Positions 21,334 through 39,295 of a stretch of DNA of 64,000 nt are shown here, piece after piece. The position numbers and the translations under genes were made by a program. The notes under the pieces are model-generated. The model did no database searches, was not told the origin of the DNA, and worked only from the letters and a program-made list of their open reading frames with translations. Source of the DNA: Haliotis rufescens (Eukaryota); NCBI RefSeq assembly GCF_023055435.1, contig NW_025963779.1:70308001-70372000 (forward strand), given 5' to 3'. How positions within the stretch are numbered: position 1 is the first letter of the stretch; each line of letters starts with the position of its first letter.

Positions 21334-21390
21334 ATGTCTGGCTTCGACAGCAACCCGTTTGCAGATCCTGAAGCGTCCAACCCCTTCTCA
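21334..21390 (+). CDS. SCAMP1: SCAMP exon 1 ([19 protein letters not shown])
   Basis: aaaATG context, two NPF motifs, |gtgagc donor. Confidence 0.92.
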
Positions 21391-27300: not shown

Positions 27301-30300
27301 CTGTAAACACAGATGGCTACAGTTAAATCTTTGTTACAGTTGGGTCATTGAATTGCTGGGGTAGCCTAGTGGTTAAAGCTTCGCTCGTCACACCGAAGAA
27401 CTGGGTTCAACTCCTATGGGTACAATGTGGGAAGCAAATTTCTGTTGTTCATTGCCGTGATATTACTGGAAATATTGCTAAAAGCAGCGTAAAACCATAC
27501 TCACTCACTCACTCACTCACTCACTCACGAAAATATGTCTGGAATATTTTGAAGATATTGTCTCAGTGTTTTGTGATCTTTAACCATTGACCTTTTACAG
27601 TGTTGATTTATCATGTGCCCAGTGTGAATATTTCTTGAAGATCATGACAAAGATGAAGAAGTGGTGGATGTATCTTTACTGTTTATTCTCAACATTTGTC
27701 ATGAGTGCTTGGATGAGAAACAATTGCGGCCAAAGTGTCATTGAACTCAACTCACACATGGAATGTATGTTGTGTTCCAGGACCCCTCTGTCCAGCAGGC
27801 TGCCGGGTCGGGACGAGGCGGTGGACAGAAAGCTGGAGGGCTCGATGACTACAACCCTTTCGCCGAGGGCAACCAGACCAGACCAGCATCAGGGGTAACT
27901 GAACATGCTAAATGTGTCTGCAGATCATGTCATATCCCGAGTCCAATGACCAAGAAAAATTAGCTCTTGTTTAATAAACATGATCTTGTTTGTATTTTGT
28001 TGAGAATTGCTGTAACTAAATTATTGTACACTTGAATATAATTTGTTCTGTATTTGCACACGAAACAAAAAAAGTAAAATAGCATGTAGGGCTATAGCTA
28101 CAAAATATAGTTATGGACTTTGAGGTAATGTTCTGGAAAGGTAATCTTATGTGTATCCTTGTTTACTATTGTTTAAGTTACATTTGTTCTGTATTGAAAC
28201 ACAATTTGACCCCGTGAAGACCCACGGTAGACTAGGTCTTCAGCAACCCATGCTTGTCGTAAAAGGTGACCATGCTTACCGTAAGAGGCAACCAACGGGA
28301 TCAGGTGGTCAGACTCGCTGACTTGGTTGAGGCATGTCCATATATCCCAATTGTGTGGATGGATGCTCCAGACTGGATTATTTACAGACCGCGGTCATGT
28401 AGCTGGAATATTGCTGAGTGTGGTGTTAAACAACAAACAAACTTAAACACAATTTAGTAGCCTTTCTGGTTGAGAATTGTCTGCATTGTTGACCTCAGTC
28501 AAGGGAGAGCTTTATGTATAAATAAATTGGTGCAATACAGTTTTTGTATGAGAACCAACTTTGCCCTTCAGTCTAATGCCTCCACCACCCCTCTGGTGCC
28601 ACCTCCTCAACCCGCTCAAACTCAGCCAGCCATCATGACCCCTTCAGAGGAGCCCCCACCGCCCTACACACAATCTGCTGCCCAGAAGATAGACACAAGT
28701 GAACTTCAAAGGAGGCAAGAGGTAGGTCCACCGTTGTCATTACGACAGGTTCTGTTACACATGGTTCCTCCAATACACGTTCATCTTGACACACAGACAG
28801 TGACTCATGACTTCTGGAAATCAAATGAGCCCTATTACGTGTATTAACTTTTTGAAAACCATTGCCTCATGTTTGGATGAAAAGTAGAGCAGAAGTCTGC
28901 AATGCTGCGACACATTTCATGAAAAATAGTAAGGCCGGGGGATATAGAAATGGGTTCCGTCCGTGTGTGCGTGCGTGTGTGCGTCCAAAAATCGTTTCCG
29001 GAGCATAACTCAGAAACCGTTAAATATTTCTCTACGAAACTTTGCATGTCTATCAGACTCATACTGAACTGGTGCCTTTTGCTATTTAGGAGTTTTATAA
29101 ATTTTTATTTTTTACGTTTCCATTGCAACAAGTTGGACTTAGGTTCTATAAGGGTGCTGTTCGTTTCCGGAGCGTAACTCAAAAATCGTTAAATAATTTC
29201 TTACAAAACTTTGCATGTTTACCAGACACATACTGAACTGGTGCCTTTTGCTATTTAGGAGTTTTATAAATTTTTATTTTTTACGTTTCCATTGCAACAA
29301 GTTGGACTTAGGTTCTATAAGGGTTCTGTTCGTTTCCGGAGCGTAACTAAAAAATCATTAAATACTTTACAAAACTTTGTATGTCTACTTGGCACATACT
29401 GAACTGGTGCCTTTTGCACCAGGAGTTTTATAAATTTTTATTTTTTACGTTTCCATTGCAACAAGTTTGACTTTTTGTGGCACCTGTTCGGGAGGAGTTA
29501 CTTAGTGTTCAGTCAGATTCCAGCTGTTTGTTTAAAGAAGCATACACAAATTTTGTAATACTTAAAGGAACACTCAATTGGAATTAAAACATTTCTGTGC
29601 AATATGCCAAAAATATCCAGTTCATTTGAGAAAAATGATAGAAGAGTTGCTTTTATATTCAAAGAGATGTGGAGATTATGAAGTATAGAGTTTGAAATTA
29701 ATTGGGCTTTGCCATGTTAGGAATATTGTGGAGGTTATTGACGTTCAGTGCCTTTTCTCTTTCAGGAATTAGAAAAGAAAGCTGCTGAGCTTCAGAGGAA
29801 AGAACAAGAAATGAAAAACATGCAATTCAAAGGTCAGTATTTTAGTTGTCAGTACATGGATAGAAATTAGCCTAGCCCGTGTTTGTTGTGTTATGCTAAA
29901 GGTTTCCCCAGGGTTAGTGATTTCAAACCATTTGAGGGGTTGTGTTGTATGTTATGACTTTTTAAGGGATTAAACTTTCCAGGTTAGCTTTTATCCCTGT
30001 AGGATTGTCAGTGGGGTATTCCTTTACAATTCCCAAAGTCATTTTGAAGAAGATTGAGTTCAGTTGTAAGAGAATGCTCAAAGAAAAAGACTTTCTTTTC
30101 ATATAACAATATTTGCAATTTGGTTATAATTTTGATGTAGTTTGATTGTGTTTGCATGAACATTTTGTGTGTAACAACTTGTTTTTGTGTACCTTTTCAG
30201 ACCGTCAGAACAACTGGCCTCCTCTGCCAAGCTGGTTCCCTCTCGGCCCTTGCTTCTACCAGGACTTCAGTGTAGATATTCCATTAGACTTTCAGAGGAT

Positions 30301-33300
30301 TGTCAAGTTTGTCTATTACCTCTGGATGTGTAAGTAATGCTCTACCTTCACCTCACATGTCTGAATTTCATGAAATCTACGTGTCCTACAACCCATGCAT
30401 CACTATTTTCCCTATCACAATGATAATTTTTATACTTATCCTGCATTACTCCTTAATGCATGTTACTGCTTGTTCTTGACACTGTTGCCCCTCAGTCTCA
30501 GTCTCTACCCAGAGCACCCTGACGACCAACACCACGTCTCTCTTATGGGCGGCGGCCACCACCATGATGCAAGGCGAGGCACTCTCCTTCCAGATGGCAC
30601 CTATCCAGTCCACCGGACAGACCCCCCTTGGGCTATGGTTTTCAACAGGTGCCCCCGCCTACGTCCCAGTCGCCTATGATGGATGCTGCTCTCCTCCAGT
30701 ACTTGCAGGCCTTACAAACAGACGCCATCTGCCTCAGCCTTGGCCCCAGTGCCTATACAGATGCCTCTACAAGCGTCACCCACAGTGCCTATACCTGCGT
30801 CTCTCCAAGTGCCTATGCAGAAGGCGCCTATCATACCGACGCCCGCGCCACCCCCAGCGCCTCTCTGAGGCGAGCCTCGTCGGACGCCTATATAGACGCC
30901 CTCTCTTCTACCGGTCGTCAATCTACCTCCCATTATTCCTTGGCCTCTGCTTCGCCCAGTACAGCCTCTCATTGGAGTGACAGTCGCTCGTCTCGCCGGA
31001 CTCACTGATCTAGGAGCCTCTCTCCTGTCCGTAGATGCTGCAGCGGATACCGTTCTGACTCCTCGGAGGGTGACTTCATCCCATGCTATGATGACACTCC
31101 CACTGATGGCAAGTCCCACCTTCGGCTAGACCAGGTAGGAGACTTGAGCCAGTCACTATCTTCCCCTGGCCTTGAGATCAATACTAAGGATGCCATTATT
31201 TGGACCCTACCACTCTCCCACCGGATCCTTTGATGATCAAGGACATGATCTAGTCCCTTGACAAGGAGTTTAGCAAGCTCTCACTGACTCAGCTCCACGC
31301 TACAGATGGAGTGATTATCCAATCCACTCTCTCGAGGTTGCGGAACGCGCCCATGAGTTAGATGAGGATATCCATCACATGACCGGGTCCAACCGTCCCA
31401 CTTCGATATGAATTTCCGACAACAAACTCACTTATGTGGAAACAGAGATTCATCGCTCTCTCAGGCCACGCTCACTTATGGTGTCGACCCCCACAGCCAT
31501 TTTCCAGGACCTGTCAGAGGATAATCCACACCGGATAGACCACCTTACCTTCGTCTTATCCTACCTACAACGACAGGTTGAGCATATGCGCTCCACCTTG
31601 CGAGCTGCTGTGATCAAACTCTGACAGATTGACAGAACTCTGGCTAGGGTATCACAGTCAGCCTCCTTTTGATAAGTCGTCCCAGTCTGCCTCCTACCAA
31701 CCCTCTGCACCCACAGGGGCGGGGCTTCCCCTCAACGTCTCGGGGTAGAGGCAAAAGCAAAGGCAAGTCCTCGGGCTCGTACCAGCCCCGCCGCAGCCAC
31801 TCCAAGGGAGGGAGTGGCGACCGCAAGGACTCTCATTGATTTGCCAGACACGCACAACTGGGACCTCCCACCACCAACCATCCAAGTTGTCGACTCTCCA
31901 GGTGGGAGATCTTGGGAGACCCATACGTAACCAACATCATCCGGACGGGGTACAAGCTGATGCTTATAGACAATCCGCATCTCATGTCGTCCCCCATAGC
32001 GGTCGTCTACCCACCCTACTCAACATCTCATTGCTACTGGCCAAAGAGGCCATAGAGGTTGTACACACCCCAGCCTTAACACCGGGCTTCTACTCACCCA
32101 TCTTCCCTGTCCCCAAGGACTCGGACAGACACAGGATGATTCACAACCTCCCCGCTTTCAACAAACGCTACCTGGCGTGTCCATCTTATTTCAAGATGAC
32201 CACGCTGAGGCTGCTGCGATCCCGGATCCAGGCACACGATGTGCTTATCGGCCTGGACATGGGAGGACGCATATCTACATGTCCCAATCCATCCCGACAA
32301 CCGAAAATTCCTCTGCTTCATCTTCATGGGAGTCCATTACCAATGGGCGGTCCTCCTGTTTGGAATTTCTTCGGCCCCGTGCCTTTTCACACGGCTTACC
32401 AAGCTGATAGCCTCGTAGCTCCATCTCCGGGACATTCACTTCAAAGCCTACATTGACGACTGTCTCCTGAATCATTGGGACATGGTCACTCTACTTCGTC
32501 ACAGGGACTTAACCCCCCGGCTCCTATACCAGTTGGGTTGGAAGATCAACCTCAAGAAGTCAGAGTTGACACCCTCATTCCACCTTCAATTTATCGGGGG
32601 TCTTTTTCAGACGAACCTTGACCTCCTCTCTGTACCCAGGGACAGGTGGGAGCACATACAATCGTACTTGATCCAAGTGCTCCACCAGCCACGCACGCTG
32701 CTATTTGCTGATAACCACACAGCCGAGGATTGGCTGAGGGAAACAGTTCTGAGATGAAAGTCCACATCTGAAGATATGCTCTCCACTGATTCCGTCGGAT
32801 AAAGATGCATTAAGGAGTAATGCAGGATAAGTAAAAAAATCTAGTAAAATCCTAGATATTTTTATATTTGTATACTTGTCCTGCATTATTGTGTCTAAAG
32901 AGCTGCCTCCCCATGATGCCTTCTGATGTTCTGGACTCCAGAGTATTGTGAGGATCCATGACGTCACTTCCCCTGGTCACGTGGGAGCTGTGTGATAGGG
33001 TTGGCCTCTCAGTTAGTTGAAACAACTTCTTCAAGCAAAGATCTTCACACAACTCTTTCCTCTGTCAAGAACAAGCAGTAATATGCATTAAAGAGTAATG
33101 CAGGAAAAGTATACAAATATAAAAAATATCTAGGGTTTTACTAGTTAAAAATAAATAGTTAACATTGATTTGATGCCATGCCATGCCATGCTCATGCTAG
33201 ACACAATTATTTCAAATAAATACTGTTATTCATTTACTTTTCCAAACATTTTAATCTAAAATACACCTTGCTTGATCTGACACGTTCGTATACATTCAGA

Positions 33301-36300
33301 AAAGGTTTATAATTTCATATGAGACAACAGTCAGTGGTACCTAAGTTAAATTGCCAACACCTTAAACAATCTGCTAAAACTAGGACTTGGCGTACATGTT
33401 TGGCTCCGTCATTGTGTCGAGTAATCTGCAGGGTGGAAGGTACAGGTGCTTGTCAACATACCCGCAGTACTATGGCAATGGTGCTTTTGAGTACCAATGC
33501 AGATGGATATTGTATGATGGATGGATGCAACTTATAATGGATATTGTAATAATGGATAGTCACCCCTAAAGGACAATTACGTTGCTTAGGAAGTCATTTT
33601 GAGATCTATATCGGTCTTTGTAGGGGTCTTTGACTAGGAGACCGATGAAAAGGAGTTTCAGGCAAATAAGTATTGCATTTCGTCAACCTTTGGACTGCCT
33701 ACATATATCTTGGTGGATACGTTTGATATAATCATGACAATAGGCCCTGCAGGAGATTTTAATGAATAAATGGTTCATATTACCGTGATGCTGTGTGCAT
33801 AGAAAGGTTTCACACTTATTCTATTTGTGAACTACAGCATGTTCTTTGTAAAGTAAAATGTTAATTTATCAAATTACTATGACTAGGTCAGATAGTGACA
33901 CTTTTCACTTGATGCTAATTATGCCATTGCAGGTTCAGTGATTTCTGAAATGGCTAAGTAACAAGTTTCAATCTTATTTCAAAATGTCAAGCAGACATTT
34001 CACTGGACTACATCTCGTCTGCTTTTACTTCCAGTCCATGTATTTGTGTTGTTCCTGAATGTGCTGGCAAGTCTGGCTTACTTCATCGTGGACTCAAATG
34101 GAGGCACTACGTTTGGCCTGGCCATTTTGTGGTTCATTGTCTTTTCCCCCTGTTCTTTCATCTGTTGGTACAGACCACTCTACAAAGCTTTCAGGTAGGT
34201 GGAGCACCATCAGTGTTCAGTGATACATGAAAAGGTTTTCGCCCAACTGTGCAGAGTTGCATCGCTTGGGCTTTCCAGCAACCTAGGATAGTGGGTTAGA
34301 AACCTAGGTTTGTCAGCACCATACCATGCTCGTGGGGTTTACCAAAGTGGTCAATATTAAAGACCTCATCACTTTGGGCTTTCCTCTCAAGCTGACACCA
34401 TGGTATAACTGAAATACTGTTATAAATGGTGTTTAACCACACTCACATGATTCTTCTTAAATGCATAGTACCATATTTACACATTTCCATGAGGGCTGTT
34501 ATTAGAAACATTATTGACCATTCAACAGGTTTTTAGCGAATAGATATTGATAAATTTAAATTAAAGACGGCTTCATGTTCAGAAGAAATTGTAGATTTTG
34601 CATCTCTGTTCACTCTGGTGACATGTCAGACAGCTGAATATAGAATGGAATGGTTGACCAAGAGGGGTTAGTGTGTGAGAGATTGACTACAACTACACCC
34701 AATCACTCAGACATAAGGCTGTGCACACAGACCCATTTAGCTATTACAACAAGTGAGGTGGGAGACTCATATTGTCTTGTATACATATCATTTTGATTTA
34801 TCTGTTCTGGTACTAATACTGGTTATAATAATGTCTATTTTCTTCTGTTTCAGGAGTGACAGCTCATTCAATTTCTTTGTATTTTTTTTTGTATTTTTCT
34901 TCCAATTCTGTGTGTATGTCATTCAGTGCTTGGGCATCACGAACTTCACAGTGTAAGTAATATATCTGTAAATTGAATGTCTTTTGGGTTTTACTGGTCA
35001 TGGACTAGATAGAGCTTAGAGAAACATGCTCATATTTCTGGTTTCTGTAAGATATCTTGTAGTTTTACTGTTGAAAATTTCATTTAGTGGACATTATATA
35101 TGCGAACACAAGTAACCATGGAAACATGTTAACTAAAATTATTCTAAGGTTAGTTTCCAGACAACTTTGAGATAGATGATCAGGGGGTTAGAGGTCATTT
35201 TTATCATAATTGTGGTGACTGAGTAAAAAGTAAATAGGTCACATGTACAACCTTGCATGACGATGGCTATGACTGGTACACATTGAGCACAGGCCAGAAT
35301 TTATATCTGGTTTTGTTTTGATTAGCTAATTGTATGATTATGAAGAATTACTGTAAACCTTATTCACAAGAGATTAGGATGAGTGTTTTGGACAAAAAAA
35401 CAGATTAATTGAATGGTTAGTATCCATATTTGACTACTTTGTTTATCAGTTTGAATTTTATTCATGTTGCATGTAAAGGAATTACAAAATGTTAAGAGTG
35501 TTGGGGGGGAGGAGGGGCATGGGTTACCCAGTCTTCTAGGGCGCCGCAATTTGCTGTGCAGAGTTGCGTCCCTTGGTCACATCAGAAACATATGATTGTG
35601 GCTTTGATTTCTGGTTCGCCCTGATTATATTTCTTGGTTCGTCAGCACCACACTCGTAGTTGTGGGTTTCACCAAAGTGGTAAATCTTTGAGGCCTGCAT
35701 CACTTTGGGCTTTCCTCCCACATTAAGCTGACACGCTGTGATATAGCTGGAAATACTGTTCAAAGCAGCACTAAACCCAACTCACTCACTCACTAAAGTT
35801 GACTGTGTATTTCAGTGGCATCATCACAGGTCTCTCGACAGTCCGCAACAGTATTGCTGCGGGTCTCATCATGATATTTATTGGCATCTTTTTTGGCCTG
35901 TTGGCCATTATAAGCTTTGCCACCCTTGTAAAGGTAGAGTTGGGAAGACCTTCCATTGGTTGTGGGCAACATGTATGGTTGCTACGCAAGGAATGTTGGT
36001 CAGGGGTAATGGGCCTAGAAACGGGATGTGAGACGGAACTCTGTACATGTGCTTTTATCCACCTACTTATTCATTGGCAGATTATGTATGGTTAATCATT
36101 TGGTCTTTTTTATAAGTAAAGCTAAGATTTTTATTCCATCTTAATACTGTCTCAGTTTCCAGTTTCTAAGTGCCATTCTCAAGTCTGACATTCAGATTGA
36201 CTTGCAATTACTCAAGAATATCCAGAAAGTGCTTGTGGAGTATTACATTTTTGCTTCAATGGACAGTAAAAAAAATGTAAATAACATGTCAGTAATGTTT

Positions 36301-39295
36301 TTTGTTAATAAAAGGAAGTTGTGATAATTTGATCTCATGTAAATTCCCACCCAGTCTGGCTATACTTGAGTAAGTGCATGAAAGCAACTAGAATTAACCC
36401 AGCATGTTGACATTGTCTGTGGTTATTGTCTTGATGGTACTCAGTTGATTCCTAGCTAGCTATTCTGTTGCAATAGTTGTTTTTTTCTTGTAGAGGGTGG
36501 ATTAACGGCCTTGGCATTATAGGCAAGAGTCCAGGGGCGGCAGCTGTCATGCTTATTGTAGCCTTCTTTTTTTCCCTCAAAGCTGTTGCCTGCATGGTTA
36601 TGCTCATCAGGGTAGGTACAGGCCTTGACGCTACAGCTGGTTATGTGGACACCACACATGATCGCTCATATTCATACAATTGCTGTTGGGGTCTATGTCG
36701 GCAAAGGTGCTACAGAAATGTACCCCAGGTTTTGCTGTTTACACAAGTGTACCCCAGTTACTTTTCTGTACACACAAATGTACCCTACTTGATAGCATGT
36801 ACAACACTGGAGTCAGGATAAGTATATTTTCAGTATGTTTCAAGATGCATAGAAACTGGTTTCAATTTGCAGAAACATTATGTCTATGCTGTGAGTTCAC
36901 TGTTGATCTTTAATCCCCTACCAACCATGATTCATGTTTGCGGAACTGCCTCTGGGTCTGGTGTCTACCCGGAGAACAGAAAACCATTGGTTGCGAACTT
37001 CGCGCTGTCATACCAAAATACATTAAAAAATAGTACTTGTTGTTACCTAGTTTGGCACTCAGCATTAAGCATGTTAAGGTGATAAAATAAGGACTAGTCG
37101 GCTCTGAGTCTGTATACTGTGTCAAGAGTTTTGTATACATGTGGCATGCTATGTCAGTGGGCTAGCACTATAAAACCAGCATTAGTCCAGGCTTGTACAC
37201 ACAGACAGACATGGACACGCACAGAGGCAGACACGCTAGGAATCTTGGAGTGCAATAATTTTGGAACTTGACCTTAAACCTCATTTCAGTTTTCCAGGGA
37301 TTGTGTTGGTGCATGGTGAATAATAGACTCCCCCTGACTTAGCACTGTTAATATTGCCGCACTAGGTACATTTCTAGTTTGGACAGGGTACATTTGTGTG
37401 TAAGGTAGCTGGGGTACAGTTCTGAAGCACCTGTGCCACAAGGATTCATTGATATACCCATGTGCCAGAATAAGACTAACAATTGAAATGTAAGGAAATG
37501 AAGATAATTTTTTTACCTTTTCCTTTAAGGTATCCCTAAAGAAATGCAAATCACAGATGTGGTACTTTTAAAAAGATAACTTCGCTACATTCTGTCAATA
37601 TCATTATCAATGAATTGTTTGATAGGCATCACTTAGAAGTTGACGGATGACAAAGTAGAGACAATTTATAGATAACTTCTATATATACTGTAAAGGCGAC
37701 GTTTAGGTATAGATCCTGATACGGTTGTCAAGCTTGACAACAGTATCATAATCTATACCGCAACGTTGCCTTTACAGTAATTAAAGAAGTTGTAATCCAT
37801 AAATTGTCTCTACTTTGTCATTAGCAATAGCTGGTATTTGCACAAGTACTTGTATGAATCCATATTCTGGAGTTGTTCGTGGTTCTAGAGACAGTTTTGG
37901 TGATTGATTTTCACTGTTTTTGGTATGAGGGTGATTTGAATATTTACTTTTGATTTAGAATTGGGGGTCTAAATTAGTTTGAGTAGTTGAACGTCTCTAA
38001 ACATGCAAGTAGTCATTGAGGAGCATACTTAATTTGTATTTATCGATCCTGTCTGAAGAATGATATCGATTGACTAGAAACAGGGAGACTGGGGACTAAT
38101 TGTGGACTTGACAAGGACTTGCCCTTGTAGATGCATGTTAATTAACAGCATGCTAGCTGAATAGATAGTTATTTACTGAGAAACTACCTACTGTATGAGT
38201 AGAGTCAGGCATGCTTGATGTCGATGTTGTAGTGTTAGTATCACATGTCAAAGTAGTTCTGCATGTGTGTAACATATAGTAATGTTAGACTGTTTAGAGT
38301 ACATGCACATATTATTTTGAATGTAAACATTTCACTGGAACTCAGATACTGATAATACATATTCTGAATTATTGAAGAGAATCGGTGACTTACAACAAAC
38401 AGAACATCTTGTATCACTATTATTGGTGCCGAGTAATTTGAAAACTGATGAGAAAGAGGATTCGTTTTTTTAGAAGATAGCTGTTGGTATTCTCGGTCTA
38501 CTCCTTCACCGATTGTGTTGTGGTTATTGTACGCTATAGAGGTATTGGTAGTGTTCCTACACCCATTGAATGTTGATGTTGTTGATGCTTACAAGTGAAA
38601 TGCAAACACAAGTTCTTTTTCATGTTCCCTTTTAACACTATTTTTTACAATCATTTTCTTAAACTTACTAAACACGTTCATCCTTTTACCATTTCATGTT
38701 ACAGGTTTGTGAACATCTGATGCATAATCTCTTGTCACAAACTAAGGTTAAAAATAGTTGTATCCTGTCATGTGATCGTCACATGACAGGATGTTGTCAT
38801 TCTAAGCTTGTGTAAAGATGTAGGCAATATCTATTTTGTTAATAAAGGTGACAAAGTTTTCCTACTTTGTTGTTAAGACAAATATATTCCTATATATGCT
38901 ATCAGCTTGAGTATCTTCACATTGGTAATGATCTTGTGTTGTTCATGTTGTAAAATAATAATTGACTAAACTTAAGAATGAGAGAGGTTTGGGGCAAACT
39001 TTTCAGGCAGTGGAAAGTTTACTTCTGCTGTTATCTCAAAGCTGAAAATTCCCATTACTGTTAAAAACATACAATTTGAGGAATTCAGTGTGGAAATATG
39101 CTTTCAAATGACTCCTTTTGGTATTTTCAGGTACATAGGATCTATCGAAGCACTGGAGCCAGTTTCCAGAAGGCCCAGCAGGAATTTGCGACAGGCGTCA
39201 TGCGCAATGAAGCTGTACAGAACGTTGCCGCAAATGCCGCTTCTGGGGCTGCTCGGGGTGCTGCTCAGCAATATGGGTCTGGAAACCGATATTGA
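21334..39295 (+). CDS. SCAMP1: Secretory carrier-associated membrane protein (SCAMP), complete
   Basis: Exons 21334-21390, 27781-27894, 28572-28721, 29766-29832, 30201-30329, 34035-34194, 34854-34952, [35816-35933 or 36494-36611], 39131-39295. Contains three NPF motifs, PPPPY, a coiled coil ([19 protein letters not shown]), NNWPPLP, the E-peptide [18 protein letters not shown] and [19 protein letters not shown]. Confidence 0.95.
22406..22716. mobile_element. MITE (hAT-like) with subterminal ATCGAT-type repeats
   Basis: agggctggcta... / ...tagctcagccct termini; repeated atcgat/gataatcg motifs at both ends. Confidence 0.5.
27352..27527 (+). mobile_element. SINE family A copy
   Basis: ggtagcctagtggttaaagc...aaaccatactcactcactc, homologous to 13176-13341. 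Confidence 0.85.
27781..27894 (+). CDS. SCAMP1: SCAMP exon 2 (DPSVQQ...[11 protein letters not shown]...)
   Basis: ttccag| and |gtaact. Confidence 0.9.
28572..28721 (+). CDS. SCAMP1: SCAMP exon 3 (Pro-rich, PPPPY, ELQRRQE)
   Basis: cttcag| and |gtaggt. Confidence 0.9.
28925..29475 (+). mobile_element. Non-autonomous Helentron/HINE (DINE-like) element with about 3 internal 169-bp tandem repeats
   Basis: ggggatatag...ccgtccgtgtgtgcgtgcgt head followed by cgtttccggagc...-initiated units at about 28993, 29162 and 29331. Confidence 0.7.
29766..29832 (+). CDS. SCAMP1: SCAMP exon 4 ([22 protein letters not shown])
   Basis: tttcag| and |gtcagt. Confidence 0.9.
30201..30329 (+). CDS. SCAMP1: SCAMP exon 5 (RQNNWPPLP...PCFYQDF...YYLWM)
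   Basis: tttcag| and |gtaagt. Confidence 0.93.
30427..33144 (+). mobile_element. DIRS1-like tyrosine-recombinase retrotransposon, degenerate and internally deleted, in SCAMP intron 5
   Basis: Inverted termini (tatacttatcctgcattactccttaatgcatgttactgcttgttcttgaca / tgtcaagaacaagcagtaatatgcattaaagagtaatgcaggaaaagtata); ICR at about 32805-32890; frameshifted RT fragments [33 protein letters not shown] and [15 protein letters not shown]. Confidence 0.88.
34035..34194 (+). CDS. SCAMP1: SCAMP exon 6 (TM1-TM2, [10 protein letters not shown])
   Basis: ttccag| and |gtaggt. Confidence 0.93.
34854..34952 (+). CDS. SCAMP1: SCAMP exon 7 ([12 protein letters not shown]..., TM3)
   Basis: tttcag| and |gtaagt. 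Confidence 0.92.
35513..35793 (+). mobile_element. SINE family B copy immediately upstream of SCAMP exon 8A
   Basis: Homologous to 18209-18476; the tail ends about 22 nt before the acceptor. A partial copy also lies at about 34245-34445. Confidence 0.83.
35816..35933 (+). CDS. SCAMP1: SCAMP exon 8A (alternative TM4: [39 protein letters not shown])
   Basis: 118 nt, phase 2 to 0, tttcag| and |gtagag. Confidence 0.82.
36494..36611 (+). CDS. SCAMP1: SCAMP exon 8B (alternative TM4: [39 protein letters not shown])
   Basis: 118 nt, phase 2 to 0, ttgtag| and |gtaggt. Confidence 0.82.
37647..37821. repeat. 175-bp palindrome of a related family (degenerate hammerhead-like arms)
   Basis: Centre gttgtcaagcttgacaac; arms end atgacaaagtagagacaattta / taaattgtctctactttgtcat; shares the taaagaagt...tccataaatt tail with 1605-1777. 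Confidence 0.65.
39131..39295 (+). CDS. SCAMP1: SCAMP terminal coding exon ([24 protein letters not shown]...GNRY*)
   Basis: tttcag| acceptor, conserved peptide, TGA stop. Confidence 0.94.

Follow-up and report, generated by a model that had tools for sequence, protein, structure and literature searches.

The locus described here raises the question of whether a single SCAMP gene can supply an animal with two proteins that differ in their membrane-embedded part. In 64,000 nt of the Haliotis rufescens genome (assembly GCF_023055435.1, contig NW_025963779.1, positions 70,308,001 to 70,372,000 of the forward strand; this whole stretch is called the window, and coordinates below refer to it), an initial annotation made from the letters alone pointed to two adjacent exons, 8a and 8b, as mutually exclusive alternatives encoding the fourth transmembrane segment (TM4). 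We consider it very probable that the single abalone gene splices either 8a or 8b between exons 7 and 9 and thereby makes two mRNA-encoded forms of 352 residues, differing only in a short luminal helix and TM4, and that this old duplication likely tunes the membrane partners or compartments of the protein. In transcript contigs each exon is joined to both flanking exons; the two copies are homologous, and gastropods, bivalves, a cephalopod and a chiton retain both types.

The abalone SCAMP gene and its two products

The gene has nine coding positions between 21334 and 39295, all on the forward strand, arranged as a nine-exon chain with alternatives at exon 8. Its first four exons are placed by the agreement of the assembled product with RefSeq models: exon 1 (21334–21390) contains the start codon and two NPF motifs, exon 2 (27781–27894) the third NPF motif, exon 3 (28572–28721) is proline-rich and begins a long helix, and exon 4 (29766–29832) is helical and coiled-coil-like. 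The Pfam SCAMP domain begins in exon 5 (30201–30329; 42 bits, over the cut-off), and exon 6 (34035–34194), which has a Pfam match and is joined to exon 7 in 4 of 4 transcript runs, encodes TM1 and TM2 and closes with the motif CWYRP. We take this motif to be the E peptide, from the C, W and R residues that PMC10316736 names. Exon 7 (34854–34952), located by junctions, encodes TM3 and, ending in phase 2, forms the constant 5′ flank of the alternative pair. Exons 8a (35816–35933) and 8b (36494–36611), likewise located by junctions, each encode a luminal helix and TM4, with Ile at position 2 and G23xxxG27 in 8a and with Trp2, Asn4 and A23xxxS27 in 8b. The coding part of exon 9 with the stop codon (39131–39295) is covered by transcript contigs and matches the genome at a single place. 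In all four runs examined for it, the last exon then extends into a 3′ UTR longer than 2.2 kb, from 39296 to beyond 41500. Exons 5, 6 and 7 are single-copy, and a profile search found no further copies of exons 5, 6, 7 or 8 within the gene.

Matches to PF04144 of 69.5 and 42 bits against a cut-off of 27, with 65.9 bits for the exon 6 peptide, place the product in the SCAMP family, and both isoforms have four hydropathy peaks; a role in trafficking or exocytosis may be expected from this family membership. Searches of the abalone's own genome with the Pfam SCAMP family, exon 9 and exon 8b returned this locus as the sole match and no retrocopy. Whichever exon 8 is chosen the product has the same length, and the two products differ at 27 residues. 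They are letter-identical to automated RefSeq models of Haliotis, the 8b product to isoform X1 (P0280; XP_046337963.1) and the 8a product to isoform X2 (P0277; XP_046337964.1 and XP_071098038.1), so both forms are already annotated.

Two introns of the gene contain other recognisable material. Intron 5 holds a GC-rich insert at 30500–32800 (GC 0.51) with broken frames, whose motifs resemble those of a reverse-transcriptase retroelement, and intron 3 contains, at about 28950–29450, near-identical tandem copies with a unit of roughly 170 nt that were seen in the translations.

Homology of exons 8a and 8b

The equal length, the phase of 2 to 0, the canonical splice sites and the open frames claimed by the initial annotation were all found: each exon is 118 nt long and lies between an AG and a GT, and the frame that enters it in phase 2 and leaves it in phase 0 is open throughout. 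The peptides, which had been called alignable yet highly diverged, align without a gap with 12 of 39 residues identical (31%) and a BLOSUM62 score of 61 that none of 20,000 shuffles reached, while the identity of the DNA is 59/118. Since BLASTP of the 8a peptide against the 8b peptide gives no local alignment, the case for homology is made by the shuffle test together with profiles. Both peptides match positions 125–163 of the 172 positions of the Pfam SCAMP model, with E values of 0.15 (8a) and 0.0027 (8b) that are both below the family cut-off. A profile built from the exon-8 segments of 127 relatives and searched over 345 open stretches of the gene picked out exactly 8a (iE 2.7e-14) and 8b (2.2e-16), the next best value being 0.054. 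The two exons are therefore adjacent, matched in length and phase, canonically bounded and equivalent in their place in the protein, as is typical of homologous mutually exclusive exons.

It had also been argued that the reading frame forces the two exons to exclude each other. The frame is indeed shifted in both cases: with both exons included, translation ends 106 nt upstream of the last junction, and skipping both causes the last exon to be read in a shifted frame with a stop inside that exon. By the usual 50–55 nt rule for nonsense-mediated decay, the double-inclusion mRNA is a likely decay substrate. Frame logic alone does not force exclusion, however, because the skip-both stop falls in the last exon and because gene models of a sea urchin (P0404) and a hemichordate (P0387) leave out every exon-8 copy and run into a tail read in a shifted frame; mRNAs of that kind would not be degraded by this route. 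The weight of the argument for exclusion is therefore carried by RNA junctions.

Use of the two exons in transcripts

We examined six of 23 runs, representing three organisms and four studies, with X3 and X8 mapped twice and with no DNA run or miRNA raw-read run among them. The runs consist of assembled contigs bearing no tissue labels, and their label as RNA, given to 14 of the listed runs, is a guess; rare forms are dropped from such contigs, and their depth is not a measure of levels. That the joints lie at GT..AG boundaries argues that the runs are RNA. Repeats so filled the first mapping that 15 of its 210 joints were listed, and the second, made on a repeat-free stretch with four runs, is blind to the skip from exon 7 to exon 9.

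All four junctions that connect the alternative exons to their flanks (34952>35816, 34952>36494, 35933>39131 and 36611>39131) are present in public contigs. The joint of exon 7 to 8b was seen in 6/6 runs and that of 8b to exon 9 in 5/6, and one 177-nt contig of run X3 spans both. The joint of 8a to exon 9 was seen in 4/4 runs and that of exon 7 to 8a in two of the four, X8 and X14, which come from two studies and two organisms. The loose contig ends at these junctions correspond to window positions 34923–34952 and 39134–39159. No joint of 8a to 8b was found in any of the four runs of the repeat-free mapping, given that contigs drop rare forms, and no 7>9 skip occurred among the joints listed (15 of 210). 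The mutually exclusive use proposed from the sequence is thus supported, each copy being joined to both flanks. Depth is greater over 8b than over 8a in 4/4 runs, so 8b appears to be the commoner form, as a hint only.

A reading of 8a as noise or as an exon in decay, or of the pair as an artefact of assembly, is most improbable. The donor of 8a is weak, a repeat lies just before its acceptor, and the contigs listed for X9 and X13 run through 8a without splicing, none of them being a spliced 8a contig. Against this, the 8a>9 joint in 4/4 runs and the 7>8a joint in 2/4 come from more than one study, and the 8a peptide is identical in the models of four abalone species and 85% identical to the copy of Gigantopelta. 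Junctions and conservation together refute the reading of 8a as decay or artefact; the initial annotation would have been overturned by an exon that is never transcribed and not conserved, and both exons occur in junctions and both are conserved. The only exon difference listed in the related organisms, at position 35837 within 8a, is synonymous.

In the three runs that list an intron 6 contig, unspliced intron contigs around 8a and 8b (34953–39130) exceed it in depth (26–40 vs 9.7 in X3, 18–26 vs 5.3 in X9 and 10–23 vs 6.7 in X13), which is a weak hint of slow splicing around the alternative exons. Just past the 8b donor, at positions 36628, 36629 and 36638, all four runs of the repeat-free mapping (two of them labelled organism A) differ from the window, so that the window carries either a rare allele or an assembly error there.

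How the choice between 8a and 8b might be made

The splicing side of our preferred reading, which we hold to be rather more probable than an even chance, is that factors specific to cell type would pick either the weak donor of 8a (AAG|GTAGAG) or the better donor of 8b (AGG|GTAGGT), that elements in the conserved 560-nt intron between the copies (35934–36493, forward strand) would assist this choice, and that nonsense-mediated decay would clear mRNA holding both exons. Divergence in this intron, counted by hand in organisms that are related to each other, was lower than in other intron pieces: 3/560 in X9 vs 49/3354 (Fisher p 0.11) and 1/501 vs 59/3254 in X13 (p 0.003) with a polymorphic 59-nt gap left out.

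The sequence was compared with several known routes to exclusion. CCTTRAY is the minor-spliceosome consensus, and incompatibility of U2 and U12 sites is disfavoured by the donors GTAAGT, GTAGAG and GTAGGT and by the lack of CCTTRAY in the introns before 8a and 8b. Steric exclusion through a distant branch point, of the OGDH type, does not fit an intron that contains 35 AGs in 560 nt, in which no AG-free gap exceeds 48 nt and the 3′ end has an AG at a distance of 19 nt; according to the sequence and the contig comparison it has no long AG-free zone. OGDH exons 4a and 4b (PMC7969005) show a similar arrangement of two homologous exons around a short conserved intron, which differs from the SCAMP intron in having a long AG-free zone. 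The one strong long-range duplex found in this single genome, formed by pairing of 36700–36786 with 37385–37437, was discarded as a docking site: it is part of a dispersed, often tandem repeat family with 175 matches, and nothing equivalent lies next to 8a. A second set of inverted repeats after 8b (37647–37821) has a very stable fold (z about −14) and a MITE-like look.

A weak lead to a regulatory element is a predicted hairpin in the intron between the copies (36203–36378, forward strand), which is single-copy and overlaps a TGCATG at 36375. Its z is −2.8 and none of 200 shuffles was as stable, for a window hand-picked from 55 inverted pairs; it went unflagged in a tiling with 67 windows, none of which contained both of its arms, and the six windows of 67 under z −2.5 all lie in the intron after 8b. 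TGCATG occurs six times in the three introns that flank or separate the copies (3.9 kb) vs eight times in the other six (12.8 kb), numbers too small for a call. Upstream of 8a, a high-copy repeat at 35540–35795, assigned to neither strand and recognised by the very high summed depth of its contigs and by their numerous loose ends, stops about 20 nt before the acceptor. It is probably SINE-like, closes with ACTC repeats and has a related piece near 34300–34400; it may supply or crowd the branch region of 8a.

Conservation and age of the duplication

The counts that follow refer to retrieved gene models grouped by species, the genomes of those species being unchecked. At least two exon-8 forms with identical exon 6 and tail are present in 26 of the 31 groups having two or more models, and the five in which a same-flank pair was not retrieved are Physella, Magallana, Procambarus, Biomphalaria and Babylonia. 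Among molluscs, 17/22 groups combine a single non-Trp (8a-type) form with one or more Trp (8b-type) forms, exon 6 and the tail being identical in each case, including a chiton, octopus, limpets, Aplysia, scallops, mussels, a clam and an oyster. Similar pairs are found in nemerteans, a brachiopod, decapods and sea urchins. Conservation in other lophotrochozoans, which the initial annotation proposed to check, is thus supported. The number of forms rises to three in Mytilus galloprovincialis/edulis, Lineus and three decapods, and to four in Ruditapes. Non-vertebrate deuterostomes have exon-8 alternatives in 4/12 groups, namely two sea urchins with an 8a-like and an 8b-like form, a crinoid with three Trp forms and a hemichordate with two. 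Among the retrieved models the Trp form is the only one in amphioxus (10 models), sea stars, Priapulus (2), lampreys and eight jawed-vertebrate proteins. The parallel with vertebrate paralog diversity drawn by the initial annotation is a conjecture: since all retrieved vertebrate sequences are of the Trp, 8b-like type, 8a is no stand-in for a particular vertebrate paralog.

Over 27 distinct 8a-type and 38 distinct 8b-type variants, the window's 8a has a mean identity of 63% to 8a-type and 37% to 8b-type variants, while for its 8b the means are 56% with 8b-type and 34% with 8a-type variants; within-type identity is 62% and 52%, vs 38% between types. By these identities across molluscan classes, the exon was duplicated before chitons, gastropods, bivalves and cephalopods diverged.

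The deeper history is less certain. Our exon-8 tree comprises 60 hand-picked rows and 39 columns, was computed with no mixture model and uses a/b labels that we set ourselves and that lean on the Trp column, and tests on 38–39 columns are fragile. In the free tree, 15 of the 16 rows labelled a, which come from molluscs, nemerteans and urchins, group with four decapod rows and others (support 82/86, not starred), and the a/b label needs 2–3 changes vs 11.7 in shuffles. With all columns, the AU test rejects a clade made of the window's own two exons (p 3e-6) as well as one of all molluscan exons (p 0.034); without the Trp column neither the window pair (p 0.11) nor the all-mollusc clade (p 0.34) is rejected any longer, so a single bilaterian origin of the pair would be compatible with the data, and compatible only.

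Under these conditions a reading with separate duplications of exon 8 in several phyla, in which non-Trp types are convergent and the molluscan pair alone is one event, deserves serious weight, and we regard it as a real possibility while placing it somewhat short of even chances. It gains from the clades just mentioned that survive removal of the Trp column, and from the fact that AU with all columns rejects neither a clade of sea-urchin 8a and 8b (p 0.26) nor an all-deuterostome clade (p 0.42). The neighbouring exons also favour it. In gene models, exon 6 (the TM1-TM2-E peptide exon) has three homologous alternatives in amphioxus and two each in lampreys, sea stars and a sea urchin (seen in P0352/P0356/P0381, P0361/P0419, P0412/P0413, P0346/P0395, P0350/P0398 and P0406/P0408), and exon 7 has two forms, combined with the exon-8 forms, in mussels, oysters (Saccostrea) and a hemichordate (P0290/P0289, P0225/P0256 and P0342/P0391; read-through model P0222). 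Duplication of exons 6 and 7 in other lineages suggests that the gene is prone to exon duplication, and convergent events are described as common in PMC9741552. On the other hand, repeated duplication sits poorly with the union of 15/16 a-labelled rows across phyla in the free tree, with the small number of label changes, and with the read-through models of Nucella, Mya and Homarus, in which the non-Trp copy comes first, in the same order as in abalone.

The broadest reading would be that the switch was born once in the last common bilaterian ancestor, which would then have had two functionally distinct SCAMPs, a GxxxG form and a Trp form, the latter being the sole one kept by chordates, and that exons 6, 7 and 8 form a modular cassette made swappable in different phyla, lampreys included, with the membrane helices setting specificity for cargo or partners. 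We put this forward tentatively, as a possibility with roughly one chance in three. The lamprey exon 6 pair would be a vertebrate exon swap in SCAMP.

Predicted consequences for the protein

The proposal that the swap affects the second luminal loop and TM4 agrees with AlphaFold models of both isoforms, which have four helices (158–191, about 194–227, 230–252 and from 272) and a short helix at 261–267. Exon 8 encodes about residues 260–298, that is, the short helix and TM4, a block with pLDDT of 89–96. As the termini of SCAMPs are cytosolic (PMC10316736), the short helix would be luminal. No solved SCAMP structure was found by sequence search. A fold search returned generic four-helix bundles (best Z 11.7), and the match to a synaptophysin-complex chain (Z 10.3, rmsd 3.2 over 141 residues) is below the level that would mean more than a common arrangement; an atlas look-up of P0245 gave the SCAMP family as the only name.

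The two types differ in a consistent set of residues. In 27 molluscan-style 8a-type variants, Gly23 is present in 96% and Gly27 in 66%, together with Ile20, Phe21 and Phe34; in 38 such 8b-type variants, Trp2 is present in 100% by definition, Asn4 in 86% and Ala23 in 73%, together with Leu20 and Ser/Thr27. GxxxG is a helix-packing motif, and the exchange of exon 8 may alter packing with membrane partners or with other SCAMP copies. The NPF motifs, the E peptide and the cytosolic tail are unchanged, so the endocytic and lipid-binding parts would be shared by both forms. The 8a form would offer a TM4 with the glycine groove G23xxxG27 and the 8b form a TM4 with an Ala/Ser-Thr face and a luminal Trp-x-Asn, and this difference may change packing against cargo transporters, channels or other SCAMP molecules. 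Chances are about equal, in our estimate, that this protein side of the reading, with shared cytosolic functions and TM4-dependent helix packing with partners, is correct. Candidate partners of this kind come from the literature: SCAMP2 and SCAMP5 control how abundant T-type channels are at the surface (PMC10316736), and NHE7 is a binding partner of SCAMPs (PMC4235465).

The splice switch could be real and its two forms functionally near-equivalent, the pair being kept because each copy is needed in the cells that splice it, as in subfunctionalised expression. Predicted secondary structure and four-helix core are the same in both isoform models, lineages with a single type exist among the retrieved models (one exon-8 form in ten models of amphioxus, one in sea stars), and extra copies arise freely, as in Mytilus, Lineus and Ruditapes. 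We nevertheless find near-equivalence unlikely, since type-specific residues are kept across the chiton, gastropods, bivalves and octopus, and since the excess of within-type over between-type identity fits different constraints on each type.

Relation to known systems and significance

Tandem duplicated exon substitutions, or homologous mutually exclusive exons, are a well-described class (PMC9741552; also PMC8373072 and PMC5740500). SCAMP 8a and 8b resemble its members: they are adjacent homologous exons that match in length and phase and belong to a membrane protein, the pair is ancient, and apparently one copy is used per transcript. They differ in that the copies are only 31% identical and that three consecutive exons of this one gene are duplicated in different lineages. 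SCAMP is absent from the main text and one supplementary file of PMC9741552. The initial annotation knew of no description of such a switch for SCAMP, and we found no paper describing the exon-8 switch, its age or its function in a search that left subscription journals mostly outside, while the event lists of fly, worm and human exon catalogues could contain SCAMP. As far as the sequences are concerned the claim needs correction, since both isoforms are already in automated RefSeq models, where the invertebrate isoform pairs letter-identical to the 8b and 8a products are unlabelled predictions. The 8a/8b switch is real, transcribed and ancient, it is machine-annotated and apparently undescribed, and its function is what we infer.

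Mammalian SCAMP1–5 and the single Drosophila Scamp share four membrane spans, cytosolic termini, NPF repeats and the E peptide, as given in PMC4235465 and PMC10316736. Mammals diversify SCAMP by five genes, whereas abalone does so by an exon swap in one gene. For Drosophila Scamp the available text of PMC4235465 mentions transcripts RA, RC and RD and contains no such swap, and the retrieved jawed-vertebrate and lamprey SCAMPs have the Trp type of exon 8 only.

In the literature available to us, SCAMP function is placed mainly in the cytosolic parts, the NPF repeats and the E peptide. A switch across molluscan classes that touches only the luminal helix and TM4, together with the repeated swaps of neighbouring helix exons in other phyla, points to the membrane core as a determinant of specificity, and the exon pairs provide natural variants and named residues with which this can be tested. 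The switch also adds a trafficking protein to the ancient homologous exon swaps, a list dominated by ion channels and muscle proteins, and it means that invertebrates with one SCAMP gene make several SCAMPs.
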